From an uncultured Thermoplasmata archaeon (GTDB lineage: Archaea; Thermoplasmatota; Thermoplasmata; RBG-16-68-12): 52,895 nucleotides of DNA. How positions within the stretch are numbered: position 1 is the stretch's first letter; each line of letters starts with the position of its first letter. Below the pieces are notes generated by a model. That model made no database searches, was not told where the DNA came from, and saw only the letters and a list, made by a program, of their open reading frames with translations. Where the stretch lies: the NCBI GenBank assembly GCA_963768855.1, contig CAVYJM010000009.1, forward strand, positions 1-52,895. Reading direction: 5' to 3'. Positions 6,668 through 39,004 of this stretch are shown here, in pieces. The position numbers were made by a program, and so were the translations under genes.

Positions 6668-7453
6668 ATGTCCTCGATTGGCAAGGAAATCCGGCTCCGG
6701 CGGATCTTCGCGGAAGGCAAGGCCCTCATCGTCGCGATGGACCACGGGGTCTCGAACGGGCCGGTCGCGGGCCTCGAGGACATCCGCAAGGCGGTCGCCC
6801 AAGTGGCGAAGGGCGGAGCGACCGGAGTCGTCCTGCAGAAAGGCGTCGTGCGATTCGCGAAGGAGTACTTCGACGGCCGACTCTCGCTCCTCCTCCATGT
6901 CAACGCCTCGACCAGCCTGAGCACCCACACGAACCGCAAGGTGATCGTCACCCAGGTCGACGAGGCGATCTCCTACGGCGCCGACGCGATCTCGATCCAC
7001 GTGAACATCGGGGGCGAGGAGGACCCTCACATGCTCGAGGATCTCGGCGCGGTCTCGACCGCGTGCGACCGTTTCGGGATGCCGCTCCTCGCGATGATGT
7101 ACCCGCGCGGCGAGAACGTGAAGAATCCCTACGACGTCGAGGCGGTGAAGCATGTGGCCCGGGTCGGCGCGGAGCTCGGAGCCGACGTCGTCAAGACGCT
7201 GTACACCGGATCCCCCGAGACATTCAAGGAGGTCGTGCGCGGCTGCCCCGTCCCGGTCGTCGTGGCGGGCGGGCCGAAGCTCGACTCGGAGAGGGCCGCC
7301 CTCGAGATGGTCGCGGGCTCCCTGGCCGGAGGCGCCGTCGGCGTCTCAATCGGCCGGAACGTGTTCCAGGCGAAGGATCCGATCGGCATGACGCGGGCGA
7401 TCGCCCGCATCCTCTTCGACGGGGCCTCGGTGGAGGACGCATATCGCGGGTGA
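6668..7453 (+). CDS. 2-amino-3,7-dideoxy-D-threo-hept-6-ulosonate (ADH) synthase, class I aldolase family (AroA-prime)
   Basis: IVAMDHG, AISIHVNIG, PLLAMMYPRG, GAELGADVVKT, VVAGGPK, SIGRNVFQ. Immediately precedes DHQ synthase II. Confidence 0.88.
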   Translation: MSSIGKEIRLRRIFAEGKALIVAMDHGVSNGPVAGLEDIRKAVAQVAKGGATGVVLQKGVVRFAKEYFDGRLSLLLHVNASTSLSTHTNRKVIVTQVDEAISYGADAISIHVNIGGEEDPHMLEDLGAVSTACDRFGMPLLAMMYPRGENVKNPYDVEAVKHVARVGAELGADVVKTLYTGSPETFKEVVRGCPVPVVVAGGPKLDSERAALEMVAGSLAGGAVGVSIGRNVFQAKDPIGMTRAIARILFDGASVEDAYRG

Positions 7454-7460
7454 GGCCCCC

Positions 7461-8492
7461 ATGGACCGCCTGGTGTGGGTGGGGGCCTTCCCCTCCGAGG
7501 ATAGAGCGGACATTCGGTCCATCGTGACGGCCTCGCTCGAGGCCGGGTTCGACCAGATCGTGCTCGACCGGGCGGACGAGGGCCTGCGGCGGCTCGGCCG
7601 CTTCTCCCCGATCCTGCTCCATGACGGCCGGTTCGAGTTCGACGGCCAGGAGATCGGGCGGCTCGCGACCATCCGCCAGGGGGCGGACGAGCGCGCGGTG
7701 CGCGCGCTCCGCGGGTCGACGAAGCACGTCGTCGTGCGCACGGAGGACTGGCAGATCATCCCGCTCGAGAACCTCATCGCTGCGTTCCAGGGGAGCGGCA
7801 CGCACCTCCTCGTCGAGGTCCACGATGCCGCCCAGGCGAAACTGTTCTTCGAAACGATGGAGGTCGGGGTCGACGGCATCCTGCTCGTCCCGCGCGCCCC
7901 GCAGGAGGTCCGCGCGGTCCGGGAGCTCCTCGAGTCCCGCGCCGAGGCCGTCCCTCTCCTCCCCGGGACGGTCACCGAGGTGAGGGCCCTGGGCCTCGGG
8001 GATCGCGTCTGCGTCGACACCTGCTCGATCCTGAAAGACGGCGAGGGGATCCTGGTGGGCAACGCCTCCTCGGGGCTCTTCCTCATCCACGCCGAGACGA
8101 TCGAATCGGGCTATGTCGCCCCGCGCCCGTTCCGCGTGAACGCAGGACCCGTGCACGCGTACGTCCTGCTCCCGGACGGGAAGACGACGTACCTGAGCGA
8201 GCTGCGGGCCGGGGACGAGGTCCTCGCCGTCGACGCGCAGGGCCGCGCCCATGCGGTCGTCGTCGGTCGCGTGAAGATCGAGCGTCGTCCCCTGATCCTC
8301 GTGGAGGCGGACGCGGGCGGGGAGAAACTGAGCACGATCGTACAGAACGCCGAGACGATCCGGTTCGTCACGCCGGACGGAGGCGCCACCTCGGTGAGCA
8401 CGCTCCGCGCGGGTGACCAGGTGCTCCTCCACCGCGAGGAAGGAGGCCGGCATTTCGGCATGCGAATCAAGGAGACGATCACGGAGCGGTGA
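7461..8492 (+). CDS. 3-dehydroquinate synthase II (AroB-prime)
   Basis: DWQIIPLENLIA, GDRVCVDTCS, PRPFRVNAGPVHAY, YLSEL, GRVKIERRPL, QNAETIR, GRHFG. Confidence 0.93.
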   Translation: MDRLVWVGAFPSEDRADIRSIVTASLEAGFDQIVLDRADEGLRRLGRFSPILLHDGRFEFDGQEIGRLATIRQGADERAVRALRGSTKHVVVRTEDWQIIPLENLIAAFQGSGTHLLVEVHDAAQAKLFFETMEVGVDGILLVPRAPQEVRAVRELLESRAEAVPLLPGTVTEVRALGLGDRVCVDTCSILKDGEGILVGNASSGLFLIHAETIESGYVAPRPFRVNAGPVHAYVLLPDGKTTYLSELRAGDEVLAVDAQGRAHAVVVGRVKIERRPLILVEADAGGEKLSTIVQNAETIRFVTPDGGATSVSTLRAGDQVLLHREEGGRHFGMRIKETITER

Positions 8493-29220: not shown

Positions 29221-29616
29221 CTAGTGCGAGTGCGCGTGGGCGTGCTCGTGATGGCCTTCCTGCGCGTCGGGAGCTTCCTCGCCTTTCCGGTTGAAGCTCT
29301 GCCCGCAGCCGCAGCTGGACCAGTTGTTCGGGTTGCTGACCATGAATCCGCTGCCCGCGACGCTCTCCACGTAATCGATGCTCGACCCATCGAGGTACTC
29401 GCGGCTGTTCGGATCGATGACGATCTTCACGCCGTTCGCTTGGACAGTCTCGTCGCCCTCGTGGACCTTGTTGTCCAGGGCGAGGCCGTACCGGAAGCCG
29501 GAGCATCCGCCGCCGGCCACGTACATGCGGAGGTAGGTGTCCTCTGCCGTGCCGTTCTTCGTGATGAGTTCTTTGAGCTTTCCGACGGCATTTTCTGAGA
29601 GTGTGACTTGGAACAT
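29221..29616 (-). CDS. erpA: A-type Fe-S carrier (ErpA/IscA/HesB family) with His-rich tail
   Basis: LRMYVAGGGCSGFRYGL, YLDGSSIDY, NPN..SSCGCGQSF. Tail HHEHAHAHSH. Confidence 0.92.
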   Translation of the reverse strand: MFQVTLSENAVGKLKELITKNGTAEDTYLRMYVAGGGCSGFRYGLALDNKVHEGDETVQANGVKIVIDPNSREYLDGSSIDYVESVAGSGFMVSNPNNWSSCGCGQSFNRKGEEAPDAQEGHHEHAHAHSH

Positions 29617-29702
29617 CGCTTCACCTCGCAGGAGTTGATACAACCATGGGCCCGTTATTTAACCCTTTGGAGCGCAGCCCCGCGACAACGCCACAGATTC
29701 GG

Positions 29703-30173
29703 TCACCCTAAGTCCTTGCCCATGTAGTGCCGCTCGTAACGGAACCCGAGCTCCTCGTAGATGTGCCGGGCGCGGCCGTTCGGGTCGGCGACCTCGAGCT
29801 TGATCTTGTGATAGCCCTTGGACCGCGCCCAGTCCGTCGCCCATTCGACGAGGTGCTTCCCGATGCCCTCCCCGCGGTGCTCGGGCGTGACCCACACGTC
29901 GAAGATGAACCCGTGCGGCTCGGGCGTCAGCCAGCCGCTCTCGCCGAGGAGCAGGTAGCCGAGGAACGCGCCGCCGGCGTCCTCCGCGATCCACGACTCG
30001 GTCCGGCCTCCCTCCACATAGGGGACGAGCTTGCGCCGGAAGTCCTTCTCCCACACCGTCCGGTCCAGCCGCGCCCGCTCGTCGCCCGGGAGGTCGTCCC
30101 ATACGGTCTGCAGCGTCGCCGTCCAAATCATCTTGACATCGGCCCGGCGACCGCGGCGCATCCGGATGTCCAC
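29703..30173 (-). CDS. GNAT family N-acetyltransferase
   Basis: IFDVWVTPEHRGEGIGKHLV...KIKLEV...N.RARHIYEELGF. Start uncertain (30161, 30173 or 30236). Confidence 0.88.
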   Translation of the reverse strand: MDIRMRRGRRADVKMIWTATLQTVWDDLPGDERARLDRTVWEKDFRRKLVPYVEGGRTESWIAEDAGGAFLGYLLLGESGWLTPEPHGFIFDVWVTPEHRGEGIGKHLVEWATDWARSKGYHKIKLEVADPNGRARHIYEELGFRYERHYMGKDLG

Positions 30174-30279
30174 GCGTTTCCCGCGCCGAGGAACGTCCCG
30201 CTGGGCGATGAAGGTGTCGGCCCTCCGGGAAGACAATCCGCGACCAGCCTTTATATCGTGCGTCTCCGTTCCGACGTCC

Positions 30280-32788
30280 GTGCTCCCTTCGCGCTGCCTC
30301 CGGTGCGGCGCCGTGGGTCGCGAACCGCTCTGCGCGTCCTGCGTCGACTTCCTCGTGGCCTATCGCCCTCTCTGGCTCGATCCTTCCCTCCTCCCCGGCC
30401 CCTCCCTCCTCGACCTCCTCGCGCCGCACGAGGTCGCGATCCTTTCCGCGGACGGGGACCAGATTGAATGGAGGTCCCTCCCCCACGAGCCTTCCGCGGG
30501 GGATGCGGTCCACCTGATCGAGCTCCTCGACCTCCGCTCGAACCCGAGCCCCGTCGTGAGCGTGGGGGATGCGGAAGTCCTCCACACGTTCCTGTCGGAA
30601 GGCCGCCGCTCGCCTCCGTCCGACCCGGTGCAGCGTTCCGCGCTGGCCGACCTCTATCGCTACCTTGCGGCGCGGGAATGGATCCCGCCCCATCTCTCCC
30701 AGGAGTACGCGCTCCGGGCCCGGACCCTGAGGCCCCTGCCTGCGGAAGAGCCGGAAGAGGATCCCCGCCGCGGTCACCCGGGCCCCCGAACCCCCCTCGT
30801 TCGAATCCGAGGAGCTCCCTCCGGAGGTCTCCGAGGAGCTGGAGGAGGCGGAGCGGGCGCCCGAGGAGCTGCCCCCGGAGCCGTCCGAGGCGACCGAGCC
30901 GGCCTCGCCGGGGCCGCTTCCCGAGCCCATGCCGGAACCCGAGCCGCCCCTTCCGCTCCCGGAACCGGGTCCGCCGCCCGAGCCGCAGCCTGAGCCCGAA
31001 CCCGAACCGGAGGAGCGTCCTGCGGAGCCGTCCCCTCCGTCGCCCCCCTCGCCCGCACCCGCGGAGACCCTGACGTCCTTCTCTGCGGAGATCGCGGGAA
31101 TGAAGGAGGAGCTCCGCGAAGAAATCGCGAAGCAACGGGAGAGCGTCCAGGCGTGGATTCGCGATCACGCCGGCGCCCTTGAATCGAAGGAGAAAGACCT
31201 CCTGGAGAAAGAGCGATCCCTCGAGCGGGCCGCGCAGGCGATCGAGGAGGAGAAGCGGTCCGTCACGGAGCGCCTCCAGTCCCTCGAGAAGGATGAGAAC
31301 CGCCTCGCCGTCCTGAAATCCCTGGGGAGCGTCCCGGGCATGACGGAGGACGTGGCCCAAGTCCTCGTGGCGGCGTTCCCCGACATGGCCGCCCTGCGTT
31401 CCGCCGATGCGAAGGCCCTTGAGCAATGCCAAGGCGTGACGCCCGCCCTGGCGAAGGCGATCCGTTTCGACCTCGTCCCCGGCGAGGTGGAAGAGGAGGC
31501 GCGGACGATCGACCTGCGCGAGGAGGCGCAGGCGTTCCTCGAGGAGGGGGACTACCGCGCCGCCCTCCAGTGCTACAACCGCCTCCTGGCGGAGCATCCC
31601 GAGGACAAGGTCTTCTGGTTCGACAAGGCGGAGATCCACGTCCTCCTGGATGAGACGGAGGAGGCACTCCAGTGCTACACCCGGGTCCTCGACCTCGACC
31701 GCGGGAACCGCCAGGCGTGGTTCGAGCGGGCGAACCTCCTCTTCGGGATGGGCCGCCTCGCGGACGCCGTCGATGCGCTGCGCGAAGCCCTCCGGATCGC
31801 GCCGCGCAAGTCCGGGGACGTGGTCCTGAAAGCGGAGCAGCTCCGCCGGGACGGGAACGCGAACGAGGCCGCGATCCTCTATCAGGCCGTCCTCGACGTG
31901 GACCCGGACAACGGCCGGGCCGTCCTCGGCCTCGGGGACACGTTCATCGACCTCGGGGACGTCGACGCGGCAGAGGGTCTCTTCACCCGCGCGCTCGGGA
32001 AGGAAGGGAAGGATCCCGAGCTCCTCTTCCGCAAGGGCGACCTCCTCCGGCGGAAGGGCCGGTGGGGCGCCGCGATCCAGTTCTTCAACCGCGCCCTGGC
32101 CCTGAGGTGGGATCTCTCCGAGGCCTGGCTGGCGAAGGGGCAGGTCCTCCTCGCTCACGACCGGCCGCAGGAGGCGCTCGAGTGTTTCGAGAAGGTCCTG
32201 TCGTTCCATCCGGACGAGGCGGGCGCTCTCGCCGGGAAGCGGGACGCCGAGGAGTTCCTGCGTCCCCTCCATCTTCCCCCTCGAAAGGCCTCGCGACCCG
32301 GACCCCCGGAGGAAACGGTCCGTTCCGAACCCGCGGCGCCACCGGCCGGCGAGACGGAGGAGGAGCGGGCGGAGCCGCCGGAGTCCGAGGAACCCTCCTT
32401 CGCGGAGGAGTTCCGCCGGGCCGGAGGCGAGGCCAGCGAGAAGGAGACTCCCGAGGAGGTCCCCGGGATCCCCGCGGACTTCAAGACCTTCGTGGAGTCC
32501 GTCGAGCCGGAACGGGAAGACACCCATGTCCTGCTCCAGCTCGCCGAACTCGCCCTCGAAGGCGGCGACCCGGACATGGCCCTCCTGCGGTACGACGAGG
32601 CCCTGGAGCAGGATCCGAAGAGCGCGAAGGCCTGGACGGGAAAGGGGACGGCCCTTCAGCAGCTTGAGCGGTACGACGAGGCGCTCGCCGCGTATGACCG
32701 GGCCCTGGAGCTCGATCCGGACGACGAGATCGCGGAGCGCTGGCGGGAGACCTGCCTGCGTCACGTGCGCCGAGGCGAGGACGGATGA
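30280..32788 (+). CDS. Large Zn-finger / Pro-Glu linker / HhH / TPR protein; +1 frameshift in the CCCC run at 30763-30766
   Basis: GTG 30280 lies 24 nt after TTTATAT. CLRC..LCASC; continuity with the E/P-rich frame of ORF 30929-32788 is restored by dropping one C. HhH pair SVPGMTEDVAQ / QCQGVTPALAKAI. About 10 TPR repeats (W..KG..L, A...Y..AL..DP). Confidence 0.8.
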
Positions 32789-33705
32789 GCTCCCCGCCGG
32801 AGGAGGTCGGGGAGCGGTTCCTGCCGAGCGTGGACCGGCTCGAGGCTGCCGTCCATGCGGGGCGCAAGGCGCTCGAGGGCGGCCGCTACGACGACGCCCT
32901 CCGCCAGTTCAACGAGGCCCTCCGCCTCAAGCCGGAGTACGATGTCGCGTGGCTCCTGCGGGGGCACGCCCTCCGGCGGATGGGCGACTTCGACGGCGCA
33001 TTGCAGAGCTTCGCGCAGACCCTGCGGCACAACGAGGAGTCGGAAGAGGGCTGGATGGGCCTCGCAGCGTCCCTCCACGAGCTCCGGCGCTACAAGGAGG
33101 AGGCGGAGGCCTACGACCAGCTCACGAAAATTCATCCCCGGCTCGTCGAGGCGTGGCTCAACAAAGGCGCCGCCCTGCATGACCTGAAGGATTACAAAGG
33201 CGCGATCGCGTGCTACGATAAGGTCCTCTCCCTGCGGCCCGAGCACGCGGCCGCGTGGAACAACAAGGGTGCGGCCCTGCTCCGCCTCGGCGACGAGGCC
33301 GGCGCGGCCGGATGCTTCGACGAGGCCCTCCATTTCAACCCGGACTTCTTCGACGCGATGGTCAACCGCATCTTCCTCTCCCAGAGGCAGGGCCACCACG
33401 GCGACGTGGCCTTCTGGGCGGACCGCGCCCTGCGCGTCCGCGACGTGGCCTGGCTGTGGTACGCGAAAGGCCTCGCCCACCTCGGCCTCCTGGAGTCCAC
33501 GATGGCCCTCAAGGCGTTCGAGCGAACCCTGGAACTGGATCCCACCTTGAAGGAGGCCCGCGCGGGGGCGCGCCGTGCCAAGACGCTCCGGGAGAAGGTC
33601 GACTTCTACCGCGGCGTCTACGAGTGCTTCGGCACCCATCTCGCGGGGGACCCCGGCTGCGCCGAGTGCGAGATCGCCGCACGGTGCCGGGAGGTGACCC
33701 GGTGA
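32785..33705 (+). CDS. TPR-repeat protein with C-terminal C-x10-C-x2-C-x5-C motif
   Basis: Repeats AWLNKGAAL, AWNNKGAAL, LWYAKGLA. Tail CFGTHLAGDPGCAECEIAARC. ATGA overlap with the upstream gene. Confidence 0.88.
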   Translation: MSSPPEEVGERFLPSVDRLEAAVHAGRKALEGGRYDDALRQFNEALRLKPEYDVAWLLRGHALRRMGDFDGALQSFAQTLRHNEESEEGWMGLAASLHELRRYKEEAEAYDQLTKIHPRLVEAWLNKGAALHDLKDYKGAIACYDKVLSLRPEHAAAWNNKGAALLRLGDEAGAAGCFDEALHFNPDFFDAMVNRIFLSQRQGHHGDVAFWADRALRVRDVAWLWYAKGLAHLGLLESTMALKAFERTLELDPTLKEARAGARRAKTLREKVDFYRGVYECFGTHLAGDPGCAECEIAARCREVTR

Positions 33706-34922
33706 GCCTCCCGTCCCTGGCCGAGGTCGAGCACGCGGACTGGGCCACGCTCGAACGGATCGCCGCACGCCTCGGCCTCAACCCGAAGGGTCGCAGCGGC
33801 GTGGTGCGGATGCGGGTCCTCGACCACCTCCGTCATCGCGTTCGCCTCGAGTCGTGGCGTCCCGGGGTCCAGCAGCAGGCCGCCCTCCTCACGCGACTCG
33901 GCCATCCGGACAGTGCGGCCCGGCTCTGGGAGTCGACGATTCAGCTCGACGAGCCGGCCCCGTGGGTCGGTCTGGGAAGGGCCCAGCTCGGTGCGGGGGA
34001 GCTGATCGAAGCCACGAAAGCCTTCGACCGCGCGGCCCAGATGGGGGACGCGTCCGCGAACCTCCACAGGGCCGAGTCCCTCGCCGCCTCGGGGAACTAC
34101 GAGGAGGCCGCTCGCGCCTGCGACGCCTACCTCACGGCCCGGCCGCGGGACCTCCGTGCGATGCTCCTGAAAGCGGGCTTCCTCGCCCATGGCGGATGGA
34201 CGGACGAGGCTGCAACCGTCATGCGGGACGCCTTCGAGACGCACCCGAATCTGCGGGAGCTGTGGCGGGGCCTCGGGACCCTCCTCCTCAAGGGGAACCG
34301 GGTCGAGGCCGCTGCGGAGGCTTATCGCGAGGCCCTCCGGGCGGACGCCAAGGATGAGGCGAGCTGGATCAACCGCGGGGCGGCCCTCCTTCTCGGCGGG
34401 CGTACCCGGGAGGCGATCGGCGCCTTCCGCGAGGTCCTCGAGGCGAATCCCCGCCAGGCGATCGCCCTGAACGATCTCGGCGTGGCATACCTCCGCGATG
34501 GGCAGGCAAAGTCTGCCGCGGTCAACCTCGAGCGGGCCGCCAAGCACATGGAGACGCCGCAGATTCTCCTGAACGTCGCGAAGGTGCAGGAGGCGACCCA
34601 TCAGCGGTCCGCGGCCCTCGAGTCCTACTCGCGCATCCTCGCCTTGAAACCGCGTGACGCGGACGCTGTGGCCGCCCGGAAGCGGCTTCAACCCTCGAAG
34701 GCTCCACGGCGTCCCGCTCCGCGGAAGGTGCGGCGACCGCTGAAGAAGAGACGGGTTCCGAGGAAGAAGAAGGCCAAGCCGACGCGGAGGAAGTCGCGTC
34801 CCCCTCCGCGCGCCGCTCGGAAGTCTCGCCCGCGCGGTCCGCGAAAGGCCCGTCGCACCCGCTCAACCTCCAAGCCGAGGACGAGGGCGAAGCCGAAACG
34901 CTCCCGATCTCGCTCCCGATGA
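33702..34922 (+). CDS. TPR-repeat protein with N-terminal SAP-like motif and Lys/Arg/Pro-rich C-terminal tail
   Basis: DWATLERIAARLGLNPKGRSGVVRMRVL; TPRs (SWINRGAAL, ALNDLGVAY); about 75-aa tail ending KRSRSRSR. GTGA overlap at 33702. Confidence 0.85.
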   Translation: MSLPSLAEVEHADWATLERIAARLGLNPKGRSGVVRMRVLDHLRHRVRLESWRPGVQQQAALLTRLGHPDSAARLWESTIQLDEPAPWVGLGRAQLGAGELIEATKAFDRAAQMGDASANLHRAESLAASGNYEEAARACDAYLTARPRDLRAMLLKAGFLAHGGWTDEAATVMRDAFETHPNLRELWRGLGTLLLKGNRVEAAAEAYREALRADAKDEASWINRGAALLLGGRTREAIGAFREVLEANPRQAIALNDLGVAYLRDGQAKSAAVNLERAAKHMETPQILLNVAKVQEATHQRSAALESYSRILALKPRDADAVAARKRLQPSKAPRRPAPRKVRRPLKKRRVPRKKKAKPTRRKSRPPPRAARKSRPRGPRKARRTRSTSKPRTRAKPKRSRSRSR

Positions 34923-35635
34923 GCCGCAGCGTCCCGCATAACCCTCAAGTCGGTGCGCCGCATCGCTCCCTCGTGCCCATCCGACCCACTGCGCACGCAG
35001 GCGTCTTCACGGACGGCTCATGGCTCTTCACGCGGAATCTCGTCCCTGGGAAGGCCGTCTACGGGGAAGGTCTCTTGACCGAGGAGGGCATCGAGTACCG
35101 CAAGTGGGATGCGACCCGGAGCAAGCTGGCCGCTTACCTGAAGCGCGGCGGCCGCACGTGGCCGTTCGGTGACACCCTCTCCGTCCTCTACCTAGGCGCG
35201 GGCAGCGGCACCACGGTGAGCCACATCTCCGATGTCTGCGCCCGGGGGACGATCGTCGCGATCGAGATCTCCCCGCGGGTCTTCCGGGACCTCGTTTCCG
35301 TGGCGGAGGCGCGTCCCAACCTGATTCCCATCCTTGCGGACGCGGCCCGGCCCGAGACCTATCGCAGTCATGTTGGGACCGTCGACGTGCTGTACCAGGA
35401 CGTGGCCCAGCGGGACCAGGTGGACATCTTCCTGCGGAACCTGGAGTTCCTGCGGTCTGGAGGGGCCGGTCTCCTGATGCTCAAAGCGCGTTCCGTCGAC
35501 GTGGCGGCGCGTCCTGAGGATATCTACGATCAAGCGCGCGCGGCGATCGGACACGCAGGTCTCGAGGTCGTGGACGTCCGTCCCCTCGACCCATTCCAGG
35601 CGGATCACGCGGCGGTCGTGATCCGCAGACGCTGA
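34919..35635 (+). CDS. flpA: Fibrillarin-like rRNA/tRNA 2'-O-methyltransferase
   Basis: TRNLVPGKAVYGE, EYRKWDATRSKLAA, VLYLGAGSGTTVSHISD, DVLYQDVAQRDQ, MLKARSVD. Confidence 0.96.
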   Translation: MSRSVPHNPQVGAPHRSLVPIRPTAHAGVFTDGSWLFTRNLVPGKAVYGEGLLTEEGIEYRKWDATRSKLAAYLKRGGRTWPFGDTLSVLYLGAGSGTTVSHISDVCARGTIVAIEISPRVFRDLVSVAEARPNLIPILADAARPETYRSHVGTVDVLYQDVAQRDQVDIFLRNLEFLRSGGAGLLMLKARSVDVAARPEDIYDQARAAIGHAGLEVVDVRPLDPFQADHAAVVIRRR

Positions 35636-35862
35636 CCGGTTCGGGGAAACCCACACGGTGCGCACGTTCACGGTCCCGGAGATGCGGGGGATTCTCCGGC
35701 GGTTTCGATCTTCTCGTCACATACGCCGCCACCCCGAAGAAGAAGTCCTTCCGGCCCGTCACCCCGGACACGTTCCGCATCATGGCGGTGGGCCTCCGCG
35801 CGGGCCCAATCAATCTTAAATACCGGCACGCGGTATGCGAGCTTCCCCTCCGAGGAAATTCG

Positions 35863-36318
35863 ATGGCACGCCTCCATGCAAAGCGCAAGGGCAAGAGCGG
35901 CTCGACCCGCCCCTTCCTGAAGACGAATCCCGAGTGGGTTTCGATGGAAAAGGCCGAGATCGAGGAGACCATCGTCCGGCTTCATCAGGAGGGCCTACCC
36001 GCGGCCGGGATCGGCCTCCGCCTCCGAGACGCGTACGGCGTCCCGAACGTCCAGCTCGCGACGGGCAAGAGCGTGACGCAGGTCCTCGCCGAGAAGAACG
36101 TGAAGCCCGCGCTTCCCGAGGACCTTGCGAGCCTCATCAAGCGCGCTGCCTCCCTGCAGGTCCATCTCAAGGACCACAAAAAGGACCTGAGCAACAAGCG
36201 GGGGCTTCAGCTCATCGAGTCCCGGATTCGCCGCCTCTCGAAGTACTACAAAGCGGAGGGCGTCCTTCCCTCGGACTGGGACTACTCGGCGAAGCTCGCG
36301 GAGCTCCAAGTGAAGTAG
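35863..36318 (+). CDS. rps15: 30S ribosomal protein S15 (uS15, archaeal type)
   Basis: MARLHAKRKGKSGSTRP, IGLRLRDAYGVP, LPEDL, HKKDLSNKRGLQLIESRIRRL..YYK. Confidence 0.97.
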   Translation: MARLHAKRKGKSGSTRPFLKTNPEWVSMEKAEIEETIVRLHQEGLPAAGIGLRLRDAYGVPNVQLATGKSVTQVLAEKNVKPALPEDLASLIKRAASLQVHLKDHKKDLSNKRGLQLIESRIRRLSKYYKAEGVLPSDWDYSAKLAELQVK

Positions 36319-36326
36319 GTGCACCG

Positions 36327-37703
36327 ATGGCCAAGCGCCTGGAGGACCTGGCGCCTCAAGGCCTGCTCGACCGCGCTCGCCGTGCGGGCGTCCTCGTGGA
36401 CGGCATCTCCCGGGTGCGCATCCTTTGCCACTACGACCCCGACGGCACGACGTCTGCCGCGATCCTTGCCCGCGCCCTGATGCGCCGGGGGAAGCGGGTT
36501 CACGCGACGATGTCCCACGCCCTCGATTCGGCCACCGTCGAGCTGATCAAGGCGGAGCCTAACGAGCTCCTCCTCGTGAGCGACATGGGGTCCGCCCAGC
36601 TCGACCAGCTCGAAGCCTTCCCGTACCCCGTCGTCGTCCTCGACCACCATAAGCCCCTGCGCGACTCGGACCGGGTTGTCCACGTGAACCCACATCTGTT
36701 CGGAGTCGACGGGGCGCGCGAGATGTGCGGGGCCACGACCTCGTGGCTGTTCACGCTCACCCTCGATGACGCGAACTGGGATCTCGCGGGGATGGCCGCG
36801 GCCGGCGCAATCGGAGACAAGCAAGACCTCGGCGGCTTCGTCGGCGTGAACGCAGCGCTCATCGGCGAGGCCGTCGAACGGAAAATCCTCGTCCCTGAAC
36901 GGAGGCTCGCCCTCCGCGATCGGCCGCTGGGACAGGCCCTCGCGCTCTCCATCTCACCCTATTTCCGCGGCATCGGCGGGCGCCCGGACGCCGCTGAGAC
37001 CTTCTTGCGGTCAGCGGGGATTGATCCCGCCTCGGCCCTTCGCCAGCTCGACGCCACGCAGCGGCGTCGCCTGGCGTCCGTCCTCGCGACTCGGCTCGTC
37101 GAGCAGGGAGCCGCGCCGGAGGCGCTCGAGGTCCTCGTGGAGGACCGTTACTGGGTCGAGCCCGATCAGATCTACGCCCAGGATCTCGAGGCGTATGTGA
37201 ACAGCTGCGACCGCCTCGAGCAAATGGGCCTCGGCATGTCGGTCTGCCTCGGGGATCGCGAAGCCATCGTGAAGGCGGAGGCCCTCCTGGACCAATACAC
37301 GAGCCGCGTCCTCGAGCATCTCCGTACGCTGGAGACGGAGGGCATGTTCACGAAGAAGCACGTCCAGTTCTTCTACTGCGAGGAGCCGAGCCTCGCCGGC
37401 TCCGTGGCCGGAGCGGGCATCCAGTTCTACTTCGATCAGTCCAAGCCCGTCTTCGGGCTCTCCGTCATGGAAAAGCAGACGAAGATCTCGGCGCGCGGGA
37501 CCCGCAGTCAGATTGCCAGCGGCATCGACCTCGCGGCGGCCTGTCGTGAGGCCGCGGGATCCCTCGGGGGCGACGGGGGCGGACACAACATCGCCTCGGG
37601 CGCGACGATCCCGAAGGGGAAGGAGGAGAAGTTCGTGGCCCTCGTCGACGAGATCGTGGGTCGTCAGAGCTCCCGTGCCGCGAAGCCCCCCGCGGCCGGC
37701 TGA
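36327..37703 (+). CDS. RecJ/GAN-like DHH phosphoesterase
   Basis: HYDPDG, SDMGS, LDHH, HVNPH, AIGDKQD, DHHA1 domain SARG...GGGHNIASGA. Lies directly downstream of rps15, a context I recall from other euryarchaea. Confidence 0.9.
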   Translation: MAKRLEDLAPQGLLDRARRAGVLVDGISRVRILCHYDPDGTTSAAILARALMRRGKRVHATMSHALDSATVELIKAEPNELLLVSDMGSAQLDQLEAFPYPVVVLDHHKPLRDSDRVVHVNPHLFGVDGAREMCGATTSWLFTLTLDDANWDLAGMAAAGAIGDKQDLGGFVGVNAALIGEAVERKILVPERRLALRDRPLGQALALSISPYFRGIGGRPDAAETFLRSAGIDPASALRQLDATQRRRLASVLATRLVEQGAAPEALEVLVEDRYWVEPDQIYAQDLEAYVNSCDRLEQMGLGMSVCLGDREAIVKAEALLDQYTSRVLEHLRTLETEGMFTKKHVQFFYCEEPSLAGSVAGAGIQFYFDQSKPVFGLSVMEKQTKISARGTRSQIASGIDLAAACREAAGSLGGDGGGHNIASGATIPKGKEEKFVALVDEIVGRQSSRAAKPPAAG

Positions 37704-37711
37704 CCGCGGTC

Positions 37712-38251
37712 CTACTCCTCGGTGCCCGAGGGCCCCCGGAGATCCGATATGTCCAACGTCTCCATGAAGCGCTCGAACCTCGCGACCTCCTTGGGTTCGT
37801 AGCACTCCGGGTCCATCGGGACGAGGACCGTCAGGCGGCGCGTCATCGCGTACTCGTTGAGATGTTCGATGAAGAAGATGCTCTTCGTGAACCCGATGTT
37901 CATGGAGATGTACTCGATGCCGTCGAGGAGGATGATGCATCCCTCGGGGTGGGCTTCGGAGAACGCCTCAAGGGAGCTGGCCAAGGTCCCGACCGCCGTC
38001 GGATCGTAGTGGCTTTCGCCCGGGCTCTGCGAGAGCCACCAGATCGGGATGCCCTGGAGCCCGAACCTCGTGCGGATCCGATCCGGATGGAGACGGCTGA
38101 TGACGAGCGCGGGCGTCCCATCGTCGTGCCGGCGTTCGACGAACCGATAGGCAGCCCCGACGGATTTGCCCCTCACCAGGTAGCAGGTGCCCTCCTCGAG
38201 TCGGACAGGATTCCCGATGCGGACTTGGCGGTCGGGGTCGGCTTGGGGCAT
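37712..38251 (-). CDS. DUF835 (inactive KaiC-like) domain protein
   Basis: LVISRLHPDRIR, IWWLS, PTAVGTL, IILLDGIEYI...GF, LVPMDP. Confidence 0.85.
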   Translation of the reverse strand: MPQADPDRQVRIGNPVRLEEGTCYLVRGKSVGAAYRFVERRHDDGTPALVISRLHPDRIRTRFGLQGIPIWWLSQSPGESHYDPTAVGTLASSLEAFSEAHPEGCIILLDGIEYISMNIGFTKSIFFIEHLNEYAMTRRLTVLVPMDPECYEPKEVARFERFMETLDISDLRGPSGTEE

Positions 38252-38416
38252 ACGCGCAGTCCGCCCGGTGCAATGGGCCGATTGGGTCCTTCACGCTTGG
38301 CCCACAATTATCAAATCGCGTTGGTCGAACTCGACAAACTCAAGAGGATTCGGATCGGGGCAGCCGCCCTCCCAACGAGCGAATCTGGCGTGCCGAGCAG
38401 GATCGGGCCGGAGTCC

Positions 38417-39004
38417 TCAGTACGTGTCGAGGAGCTTGCTGACCTCGCGCGTCTCCAGGTCCGTCCTCAGGGCGGGTGACTCGAGCACCTTGACGTTCCG
38501 CTCGAGGAGCGCGAGCTCCTTCTCCTCCAGCGTCTCGGGGCTCACGGGAAGGAGGAGGATCGCACGATGCTGCATGATGAACTCGTTCACGTGCTCCACG
38601 AACATCAGCGTCTGGAGGAATCCGTTGTTGATGATCAGGAACTCGAGTCCGTCGAGGAGGATGACGCCCTCGCCGCCGTTGTCCTCAATGAACTTCTGGA
38701 GGACCTTCGCGAGCGTGCCAATTGCGGTCGGGTTGTGGAAGTCCTCGCCCGGCGTGTGGCTCAGCCAAACGATCCGGACGTCCATCAGCCCGCGCTCGCG
38801 CCGCACCCGCTCGGGGTACTGCCGCGTCACGACGAGTCCCGGGATCTTCTGCTCCAGGAGGACCTCGAACAGGCGGTAGCTCACCTCGGGCTTCTTCTCT
38901 TTCACGAGGTAGCAGACGCCTTTCTCGATGTCCATAGGTAGCCCAGTTCTCACGTAGTCGTCCTCGGACCCGTAGATGTGGTCCTGTGCGTGCACCCATC
39001 CCAT
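38417..39004 (-). CDS. DUF835 (inactive KaiC-like) domain protein
   Basis: LVVTRQYPERVR, IVWLS, PTAIGTL, VILLDGLEFLIINNGF, LLPVSPETL..KELALLER. Own TTTAAA element at 39031-39037. Confidence 0.88.
   Translation of the reverse strand: MGWVHAQDHIYGSEDDYVRTGLPMDIEKGVCYLVKEKKPEVSYRLFEVLLEQKIPGLVVTRQYPERVRRERGLMDVRIVWLSHTPGEDFHNPTAIGTLAKVLQKFIEDNGGEGVILLDGLEFLIINNGFLQTLMFVEHVNEFIMQHRAILLLPVSPETLEEKELALLERNVKVLESPALRTDLETREVSKLLDTY

Follow-up and report, generated by a model that had tools for sequence, protein, structure and literature searches.

What do three consecutive tetratricopeptide repeat (TPR) genes do in front of the fibrillarin gene of an uncultured archaeon, and does their function concern fibrillarin at all? 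The locus lies at positions 30280 to 35635 of a 52,895-nucleotide stretch of Thermoplasmata DNA (GenBank assembly GCA_963768855.1, contig CAVYJM010000009.1), which is called the window here. A preliminary description had proposed that the products of the three genes form a hetero-oligomeric TPR complex coupled to fibrillarin, for example as an assembly chaperone of box C/D ribonucleoproteins. By comparing gene order, sequence profiles and structure models across related genomes, we show that the locus is a lineage-specific conserved module, which pairs a gene for a GNAT acetyltransferase with a divergent operon of three TPR genes that are coupled in translation (genes 1, 2 and 3, together the trio). 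We propose, with a probability of roughly 0.45, that the three TPR proteins form a scaffold that is tethered to nucleic acid and works with the GNAT protein.

Results

A divergent acetyltransferase gene and three coupled TPR genes form a conserved module

The window is contig C9 of a metagenome-assembled genome (MAG) of 2.87 Mb in 24 contigs (93.6% complete, 7.7% contamination) and has a G+C content of ~68%. Its three TPR genes are joined by overlaps of 4 nucleotides: at 32785 (ATGA) the ATG of gene 2 overlaps the stop codon of gene 1, and at 33702 (GTGA) the GTG of gene 3, which is preceded by GGAGGTGA, overlaps the stop codon of gene 2. Both overlaps are kept in every relative with separate genes, down to 38% protein identity, and the order gene 1, gene 2, gene 3 was found in all 12 relatives fetched as well as at further loci. 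Upstream of gene 1, the TATA box TTTATAT at 30250 and the start codon GTG at 30280 are invariant in 12 relatives, and their spacing of 30 nucleotides would imply a leaderless archaeal transcript. The promoter region measures only ~44 nucleotides and is bounded by the divergent GNAT gene. This gene, a constant neighbour that the preliminary description had overlooked, adjoins gene 1 on the opposite strand at 27 of 27 loci tested, which come from every family included in that comparison, an arrangement that survives divergence down to ~35% identity.

How widely does the module occur? Seven families were sampled in one Thermoplasmata order, labelled f1 to f7, with the genome of the window in f1. 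Orthologs of gene 2, called as full-length or fused with E below 1e-44, are present in 15/16 genomes of f1, 5/5 of f2, 7/7 of f3, 2/2 of f4, 1/1 of f5, 3/3 of f6 and 0/7 of f7. The GNAT orthologs have the same pattern of presence and absence across the families (f1 12/12, f2 6/6, f3 8/8, f4 2/2, f5 1/1, f6 4/4, f7 0/12). The trio is thus confined to six of the seven families of a single order. Outside the order, the TPR stretches of other large proteins gave the only matches, all of them partial, and these do not lie near the fibrillarin gene, flpA, in the genomes whose positions were compared. The named relatives are uncultured MAGs listed as "Thermoplasmata archaeon" or "Methanobacteriota archaeon", with isolate names that suggest soil and sediment. 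That genes 1 to 3 are joined by overlaps, as the preliminary description had it, is therefore borne out in the relatives with separate genes, and the genes are conserved together.

The features of the module in the window are as follows.

29703 to 30236, minus strand: GNAT acetyltransferase gene (Pfam Acetyltransf_1, 1e-21), the real start of which is probably near 30191
30250 to 30256, plus strand: TATA box of gene 1
30280 to 30759, plus strand: N-terminal domain of gene 1 in frame 1, with a CxxC-x8-CxxC zinc ribbon and a small beta/helical domain
30751 to 30765, plus strand: frameshift site of gene 1 as located by DNA alignments, one extra base in or beside a CCCC run
30770 to 32788, plus strand: remainder of gene 1 in frame 2 (Pfam TPR_2 1.4e-46, HHH_5 9.6e-5)
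to ~31070, plus strand: acidic Pro/Glu linker of gene 1 (approximate)
~31075 to 31320, plus strand: long helix of gene 1 (approximate)
~31319 to 31471, plus strand: pair of helix-hairpin-helix motifs, (HhH)2, of gene 1 (approximate)
~31526 to 32290, plus strand: TPR block of gene 1, followed by the second acidic linker (approximate)
~32528 to 32785, plus strand: three C-terminal TPRs of gene 1 (approximate)
32785 to 33705, plus strand: gene 2, 306 residues, seven TPRs and a tail with four cysteines (Pfam TPR_1 2.5e-36)
33625 to 33687, plus strand: C-terminal Cys4 cluster of gene 2, C-x10-C-x2-C-x5-C
33702 to 34922, plus strand: gene 3, 406 residues, with a SAP-like N-terminus, TPRs and a basic tail
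~33711 to 33836, plus strand: SAP-like motif of gene 3
~33879 to 34691, plus strand: TPRs of gene 3 (Pfam TPR_2)
~34692 to 34919, plus strand: Lys/Arg/Pro-rich tail of gene 3

Gene 1 is interrupted by one extra base in the window

Gene 1 is not a single open reading frame (ORF) in the window: frame 1 runs from 30280 to 30993, and frame 2 is open from 30929 or before to 32788. The two halves, namely the N-terminal 160 residues in frame 1 and the rest in frame 2, are one protein in relatives. Within the genus, over 20 genomes carry the N-terminal domain in a single open frame of mostly 720–1100 residues, and the eight orthologs that can be aligned end to end measure 781–882 residues. In DNA alignments at 81.8–83% identity, the window has one extra base at ~30761 compared with all four of the closest available sequences; the preliminary description had read straight through this break. 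The insertion may have arisen in the assembly or as a recent mutation; among contigs with near-identical gene 2 proteins, the closest DNA is only ~82–83% identical over gene 1. A real mutation would leave a separate N-terminal fragment of 238 residues (30280 to 30993) and a C-terminal product that possibly begins at ATG 30929. A programmed frameshift was rejected, as no relative shifts at that site. An ORF of 837 residues that shadows gene 1 in antisense (30251 to 32764, minus strand) was set aside because the TPR matches and the orthologs are on the plus strand; it is presumably a shadow frame of the kind typical of DNA with 68% G+C.

Domains of the three TPR proteins

All three proteins match Pfam TPR models far above the gathering cut-off, which is ~27 bits for TPR_1 and TPR_2 as well as for HHH_5 and Fibrillarin: gene 1 reaches 153 bits (TPR_2), gene 2 122 bits (TPR_1) and gene 3 77 bits (TPR_2). 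NCBIfam assigns none of them to a specific family and returns sub-threshold generic TPR matches only, and their database homologs bear generic names such as "tetratricopeptide repeat protein".

The architecture of gene 1 was read from an AF2 model of the intact ortholog in genome G009. The N-terminal domain of ~150 residues, whose Cys4 ribbon has invariant cysteines at positions 6, 9, 18 and 21, folds confidently (AF2 pLDDT 85.7) and stands at or near the protein N-terminus wherever that end is present. It is rare, with 33 representatives among 1.84 billion proteins. Neither Pfam nor a profile sequence search of the PDB gave a match, Foldseek found nothing for the model in the PDB at E up to 0.001, and a wide fold search with VIA-align gave generic helical-repeat matches only (best Z 5.4). 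In the G009 model this domain is followed by a disordered, acidic linker rich in Pro and Glu (residues 155–262), a single helix of 89 residues (262–350), a compact helical domain (357–399), 14 paired TPR-type helices (401–661), a second disordered acidic stretch (664–741) and six more TPR helices. In the PDB, a profile of the compact domain, built from nine orthologs, matches the C-terminal (HhH)2 domain of ERCC1 (E 1.1e-5) and many other (HhH)2 chains; its matches include DisA, FAAP24, Hef, XPF and LigA, and the ribosomal protein L32e of Haloarcula (E 1.2e-4).

Gene 2 ends in the pattern Y-x-C-x-G-x7-G-C-x2-C-x5-C, in which C281, C292, C295 and C301 are invariant in 13 orthologs, down to 38% identity. 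This tail agrees with the spacing C-xn-C-x2-C-x5-C of a [4Fe-4S] site of EndoIII/MutY or WhiB type, as described for MutY/EndoIII and WhiB (PMC11722440, PMC5462746), and like those sites has four cysteines. The first spacer differs, being 10 residues in gene 2, 6 in EndoIII/MutY (C-x6-C-x2-C-x5-C) and 14–22 in WhiB (C-x14-22-C-x2-C-x5-C), and the cysteines of gene 2 stand at the extreme C-terminus of a protein that has no homology to the glycosylases or to WhiB. The tail may bind a [4Fe-4S] cluster or, equally possible, zinc. At 29221 to 29643 on the minus strand lies a gene for a HesB/IscA-like Fe-S carrier of A type, which matches Pfam Fe-S_biosyn in relatives. It adjoins the GNAT gene in f1 and f6, which may matter if the tail does bind Fe-S.

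At the N-terminus of gene 3, a profile of 14 N-termini weakly matched the SAP domain of Hcc-1 as its best PDB hit (E 0.018), with the SAP chain of Ku70 (1jjr) and the "putative DNA-binding protein" 2rno among its further weak matches; SAP-like is thus a weak assignment. The C-terminal tail consists of ~75 residues of mostly Lys, Arg, Pro and Ser. In gene 3 of f2 and f3 and in the f4 fusion, (HhH)2 takes the place of this basic tail and scores above the HHH_5 cut-off (46.4 and 44.9 bits, E 5.5e-12 and 1.6e-11), and therefore a C-terminus of nucleic-acid-binding type seems to be the conserved theme. In f4 and f6 a single ORF takes the place of genes 2 and 3; it ends in (HhH)2 and, unlike the split gene 2, has no Cys tail.

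The domains that the preliminary description had read from the window thus largely stand: in gene 1 the Cys4 ribbon, acidic linker, long helix, (HhH)2 and TPRs, in gene 2 the TPRs and Cys4 tail, and in gene 3 the TPRs and the basic tail, the SAP-like part of gene 3 being the weak point.

The GNAT neighbour

The best PDB matches of the GNAT protein are SpeG-like and streptothricin acetyltransferases, with weaker matches to Naa30, Naa20, Naa10 and RimI (8e-6 to 1.7e-4). It passes no NCBIfam cut-off, reaching 42 bits on the RimI model (TIGR01575) where 86.4 are required; two other GNATs of the genome come closer to this cut-off, also without reaching it. Beyond the GNAT gene the surroundings vary. 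At an f4 locus (L023), an ftsZ-like ORF at 684–1634, in which a tubulin-type GGAGCN motif was recognised by eye, extends up to the beginning of the GNAT match, whereas the upstream context in the window consists of pst/phoU and an FrhB-like gene.

The fibrillarin gene and its own neighbours

Downstream of the trio, the window contains the following.

34935 to 34950, plus strand: motif like a B recognition element and TATA box, CGCATAACCCTCAAGT, the probable flpA promoter, 29 nucleotides before GTG 34973
34973 to 35635, plus strand: flpA (fibrillarin) from its conserved GTG
35863 to 36318, plus strand: rps15 (Pfam Ribosomal_S13_N and Ribosomal_S15), with TATA-like CTTAAAT at 35815
~36330 to 37703, plus strand: DHH/RecJ-like gene after rps15 (Pfam DHH, DHHA1 and DHH_CID)

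Is flpA the fourth gene of the operon, as the preliminary description had proposed? Its identity is as stated there: flpA matches Pfam Fibrillarin at 9.2e-70 (234.8 bits, profile positions 8–224 of 227), and the genome of the window has no other true fibrillarin. Its start was placed differently. In an alignment of 13 relatives an RTG codon, GTG 34973 in the window, is invariant and is followed by the fibrillarin N-terminus x-I-R-P-T; it lies 50 nucleotides after the stop of gene 3. The in-frame ATG at 34919, which does overlap that stop and had been taken to couple gene 3 to flpA, is not conserved as coding sequence and very probably is not the flpA start. Three genes are therefore demonstrably coupled, while the fourth overlap is probably not real.

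In the same 13 relatives a conserved motif lies 28–29 nucleotides upstream of the RTG codon, a spacing equal to that of the gene 1 promoter. Several relatives have GGAA-nn-CTCATTA or ATCAATA at this place, and the window has CGCATAA-CC-CTCAAGT. The distance of the motif to the start is not the same in the window and in G009 but shifted by one base, so that the frames differ and the conservation concerns the DNA, not a protein sequence. To judge from this motif, flpA probably has its own promoter, which is degenerate in the subclade of the window. A scan of the plus strand from 29500 to 38500 for AT-rich or TTTAWA boxes gave two matches, TTTATAT at 30250 and CTTAAAT at 35815; such a scan would miss degenerate boxes like the one between gene 3 and flpA. 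The single TATA box that had been assigned to four genes is confirmed and is invariant, but its reach to flpA is called into question by this promoter-like motif.

Across the order, only f1 and one f6 genome have the trio immediately next to flpA. Two small genes on the opposite strand lie between them in f3, f4 and the rest of f6, the same two genes plus 4–6 kb more in f2, and at two loci no flpA is found within 6 kb of the trio. Adjacency is thus mainly a trait of f1, and genes or 2–9 kb intervene elsewhere. The intervening genes encode 120 residues (no Pfam match) and 165 residues (a coiled coil with a weak winged-helix/DUF7342 match); at the f4 locus L023 the pair occupies 6668–7524 on the minus strand, divergent upstream of flpA. 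The same pair stands upstream of flpA-rps15-DHH in G077, a complete genome from a different family in which the trio is absent at that locus, and flpA-rps15 adjacency is also seen in G096. In the genome of the window the gene for 165 residues is on contig C17 (145088–145567; the match spans one TAG), and the tightness of trio and flpA is therefore a family-level rearrangement. The flpA-rps15-DHH block, as judged from gene order, is the older unit and exists outside the order without the trio.

The preliminary description had further held that the trio sits where nop5 commonly neighbours flpA. In the genome of the window nop5 (380 residues, intact) is apart from flpA, on contig C6 at ~318000–319150 (L001 1322–2464, minus strand). 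Among 120 genomes of the class, adjacency of the two genes is limited to f8 and to additional paralog pairs of f17 (which includes the unpublished genome G131; no claim depends on G131 alone), and nop5 is far from flpA in 11 of 11 single-contig genomes compared. Since the two genes are unlinked in most Thermoplasmata families, nothing replaced nop5 beside flpA. Family f7 has flpA and nop5 and no trio. We found no paper that combines Thermoplasmata, tetratricopeptide and fibrillarin.

Two further observations concern the genes after flpA. The ORF of 622 residues at 35835–37703 is an over-extension, as its first ~160 codons overlap rps15 in another frame; the true start of the RecJ/GAN-like gene (DHH/DHHA1/DHH_CID) is near 36330. 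In a close metagenomic relative (L114, 6889–7683) a gene for a class I S-adenosylmethionine-dependent methyltransferase of 264 residues, absent from the window, lies between flpA and rps15.

Discussion

How could the three TPR proteins and the GNAT protein work together? In the scaffold that we propose, gene 1 would hold the assembly on nucleic acid by its ERCC1/XPF-type (HhH)2, and gene 3 by its SAP-like motif and its basic tail; in other families the (HhH)2 of gene 3 would be the holding part instead. Client proteins may be recruited through the long helix, the acidic linkers and the surfaces of the TPRs, and the likeliest partner or effector would be the neighbouring GNAT protein. That genes 2 and 3 are fused in f4 and f6 fits joint action. 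We favour DNA as the ligand because the modules are an ERCC1-type (HhH)2 and a SAP-like motif, and because the SAP and TPR domains of FAN1 touch DNA. The module sits beside the older flpA-rps15-recJ block, with the two genes formerly between them having moved away in f1, and its place before fibrillarin is secondary.

Several known systems share parts of this architecture. FAN1 (UBZ zinc finger, SAP, TPR and VRR_nuc domains) combines a zinc finger, a SAP motif and TPRs, much as the trio combines a Cys4 ribbon, a SAP-like motif and TPRs, and in the structure of PaFAN1 with DNA the SAP domain as well as the TPR domain touches phosphates of the DNA (PMC4201288). In the trio, however, the modules are spread over three proteins with no detectable sequence homology to FAN1 beyond generic repeats, (HhH)2, the Cys4 tail and the basic tail are additional, and neither VRR_nuc nor another nuclease family was found in the three proteins with Pfam and NCBIfam. 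The middle domain of gene 1 aligns with the (HhH)2 of ERCC1, XPF, Hef and FAAP24, and gene 3 orthologs elsewhere carry a second (HhH)2. Domains of this type pair and bind DNA. Gene 1 has no ERCC4 nuclease or helicase domain, and its (HhH)2 stands between a long helix and a TPR array.

In eukaryotic NatA the TPR subunit Naa15 is auxiliary to the GNAT subunit Naa10 and docks on the ribosome. The pairing of a GNAT with large TPR proteins resembles this arrangement, and the basic and nucleic-acid-binding-type elements of the trio could mimic Naa15 docking. In contrast to NatA, the association of GNAT and trio is one of gene neighbourhood only, the GNAT protein is not by score an ortholog of Naa10 or RimI, and the proteins of the trio do not match the NatA_aux_su model above its cut-off. 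R2TP (RPAP3/Tah1), which serves in eukaryotic box C/D snoRNP assembly and belongs to the TPR co-chaperones with which the preliminary description had loosely compared the trio, is alike in that TPR proteins occur near a box C/D component; the trio differs in lacking a conserved linkage to flpA or nop5 and in having accessory modules of DNA-binding type, and no RuvBL- or Hsp90-related partners were seen in its locus.

What speaks against a nucleic-acid-tethered scaffold that works with the GNAT protein? The HHH_5 match of the window's own gene 1 stays below the Pfam cut-off (23.2 vs 27 bits), the N-terminus of gene 3 gave no Pfam SAP (PF02037) match at E up to 0.1, and the fused form in f4 and f6 has neither the Cys tail nor the SAP-like motif, so that neither is indispensable. 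DNA is not established as the ligand either, as (HhH)2 domains can also bind ribosomal RNA (rRNA), as in the matched L32e of Haloarcula, or dimerise. As the relatives are not independent, one gain or one loss may account for the co-occurrence of GNAT and trio. There is also no T-run terminator between gene 3 and flpA, and the two could be co-transcribed in f1. All these points weigh against our proposal. A complex prediction for gene 3 (residues 1–335) with gene 2, in which each protein was given its alignment, scored 0.01 against a mark of 0.32; it carries no verdict and is used neither way.

The main rival to the proposed scaffold is a ribosome-bound complex like an N-terminal acetyltransferase, in which the TPR proteins would be auxiliary subunits of the GNAT protein and their modules would dock on rRNA. 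The constancy of the GNAT gene and its shared phyletic pattern with the trio suit such a complex as well, as do the match of the gene 1 (HhH)2 profile to the rRNA-bound N-terminal extension of L32e, the ribosome-related neighbours flpA and rps15, and the weak similarity of the GNAT protein to Naa30, Naa20, Naa10 and RimI. The fused f4 protein even has a weak NatA_aux_su match (3.7e-4), but this reaches 20 bits where 33.3 are required, and the TPR proteins of the window give none at E up to 0.01. The GNAT protein is, moreover, closer to SpeG and streptothricin acetyltransferases than to N-terminal acetyltransferases, two other GNATs of the genome fit the RimI model better, and SAP and ERCC1-type (HhH)2 domains are mostly DNA binders, all of which makes a ribosome-bound complex unlikely in our eyes. 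A more ambitious version, which we regard as distinctly improbable, would unite GNAT and trio in an undescribed acetyltransferase holo-complex, restricted to this order and tethered to chromatin or the ribosome by the (HhH)2, SAP-like and basic modules, in which a [4Fe-4S] cluster of gene 2 would make tethering or activity redox-sensitive. That the genes encode three co-expressed adaptors without a common complex, each with its own clients and with generic accessory modules, seems rather unlikely: TPR proteins are indeed abundant, with ~30–75 candidate regions per genome in our searches, and NCBIfam has no specific family for any of the three, yet gene order and the 4-nucleotide overlaps are strictly kept in every split family, and two families have fused genes 2 and 3.

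Where does this leave the coupling to fibrillarin? In its favour, flpA follows the trio immediately and on the same strand in f1, where no T-run resembling a terminator separates them, the neighbourhood of trio and flpA persists across the order at 0–9 kb, and gene 3 has a basic tail. Against this stand the conserved flpA start 50 nucleotides downstream of gene 3 with its promoter-like motif, the opposite-strand genes that separate trio and flpA in f2, f3, f4 and most of f6, the two loci without flpA within 6 kb, the flpA-rps15-DHH block without the trio outside the order, the separation of nop5 from flpA in most of the class, and f7, which has flpA and nop5 and lacks the trio. Most of the observations that the preliminary description had itself named as speaking against its box C/D link are hence the ones that we made, and we consider that link very improbable. 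What stands of the TPR complex described there is a conserved, coupled and uncharacterised trio with modules of nucleic-acid-binding type; its tie to fibrillarin and box C/D is weak.

In conclusion, the annotation of this locus changes in three places: gene 1 is broken in the assembly, flpA starts at 34973, and the ORF of 622 residues is rps15 plus a RecJ-like gene. The separation of flpA and nop5, far from being peculiar to this locus, is a trait of the class Thermoplasmata as a whole. If the TPR trio and the GNAT protein do cooperate, they would constitute a lineage-specific machine for protein modification or nucleic-acid organisation in widespread uncultured soil archaea, and such a machine would use modules (SAP-like, ERCC1-type HhH, a possible Fe-S knuckle and TPR arrays) that are better known from DNA-repair and acetyltransferase complexes of eukaryotes.

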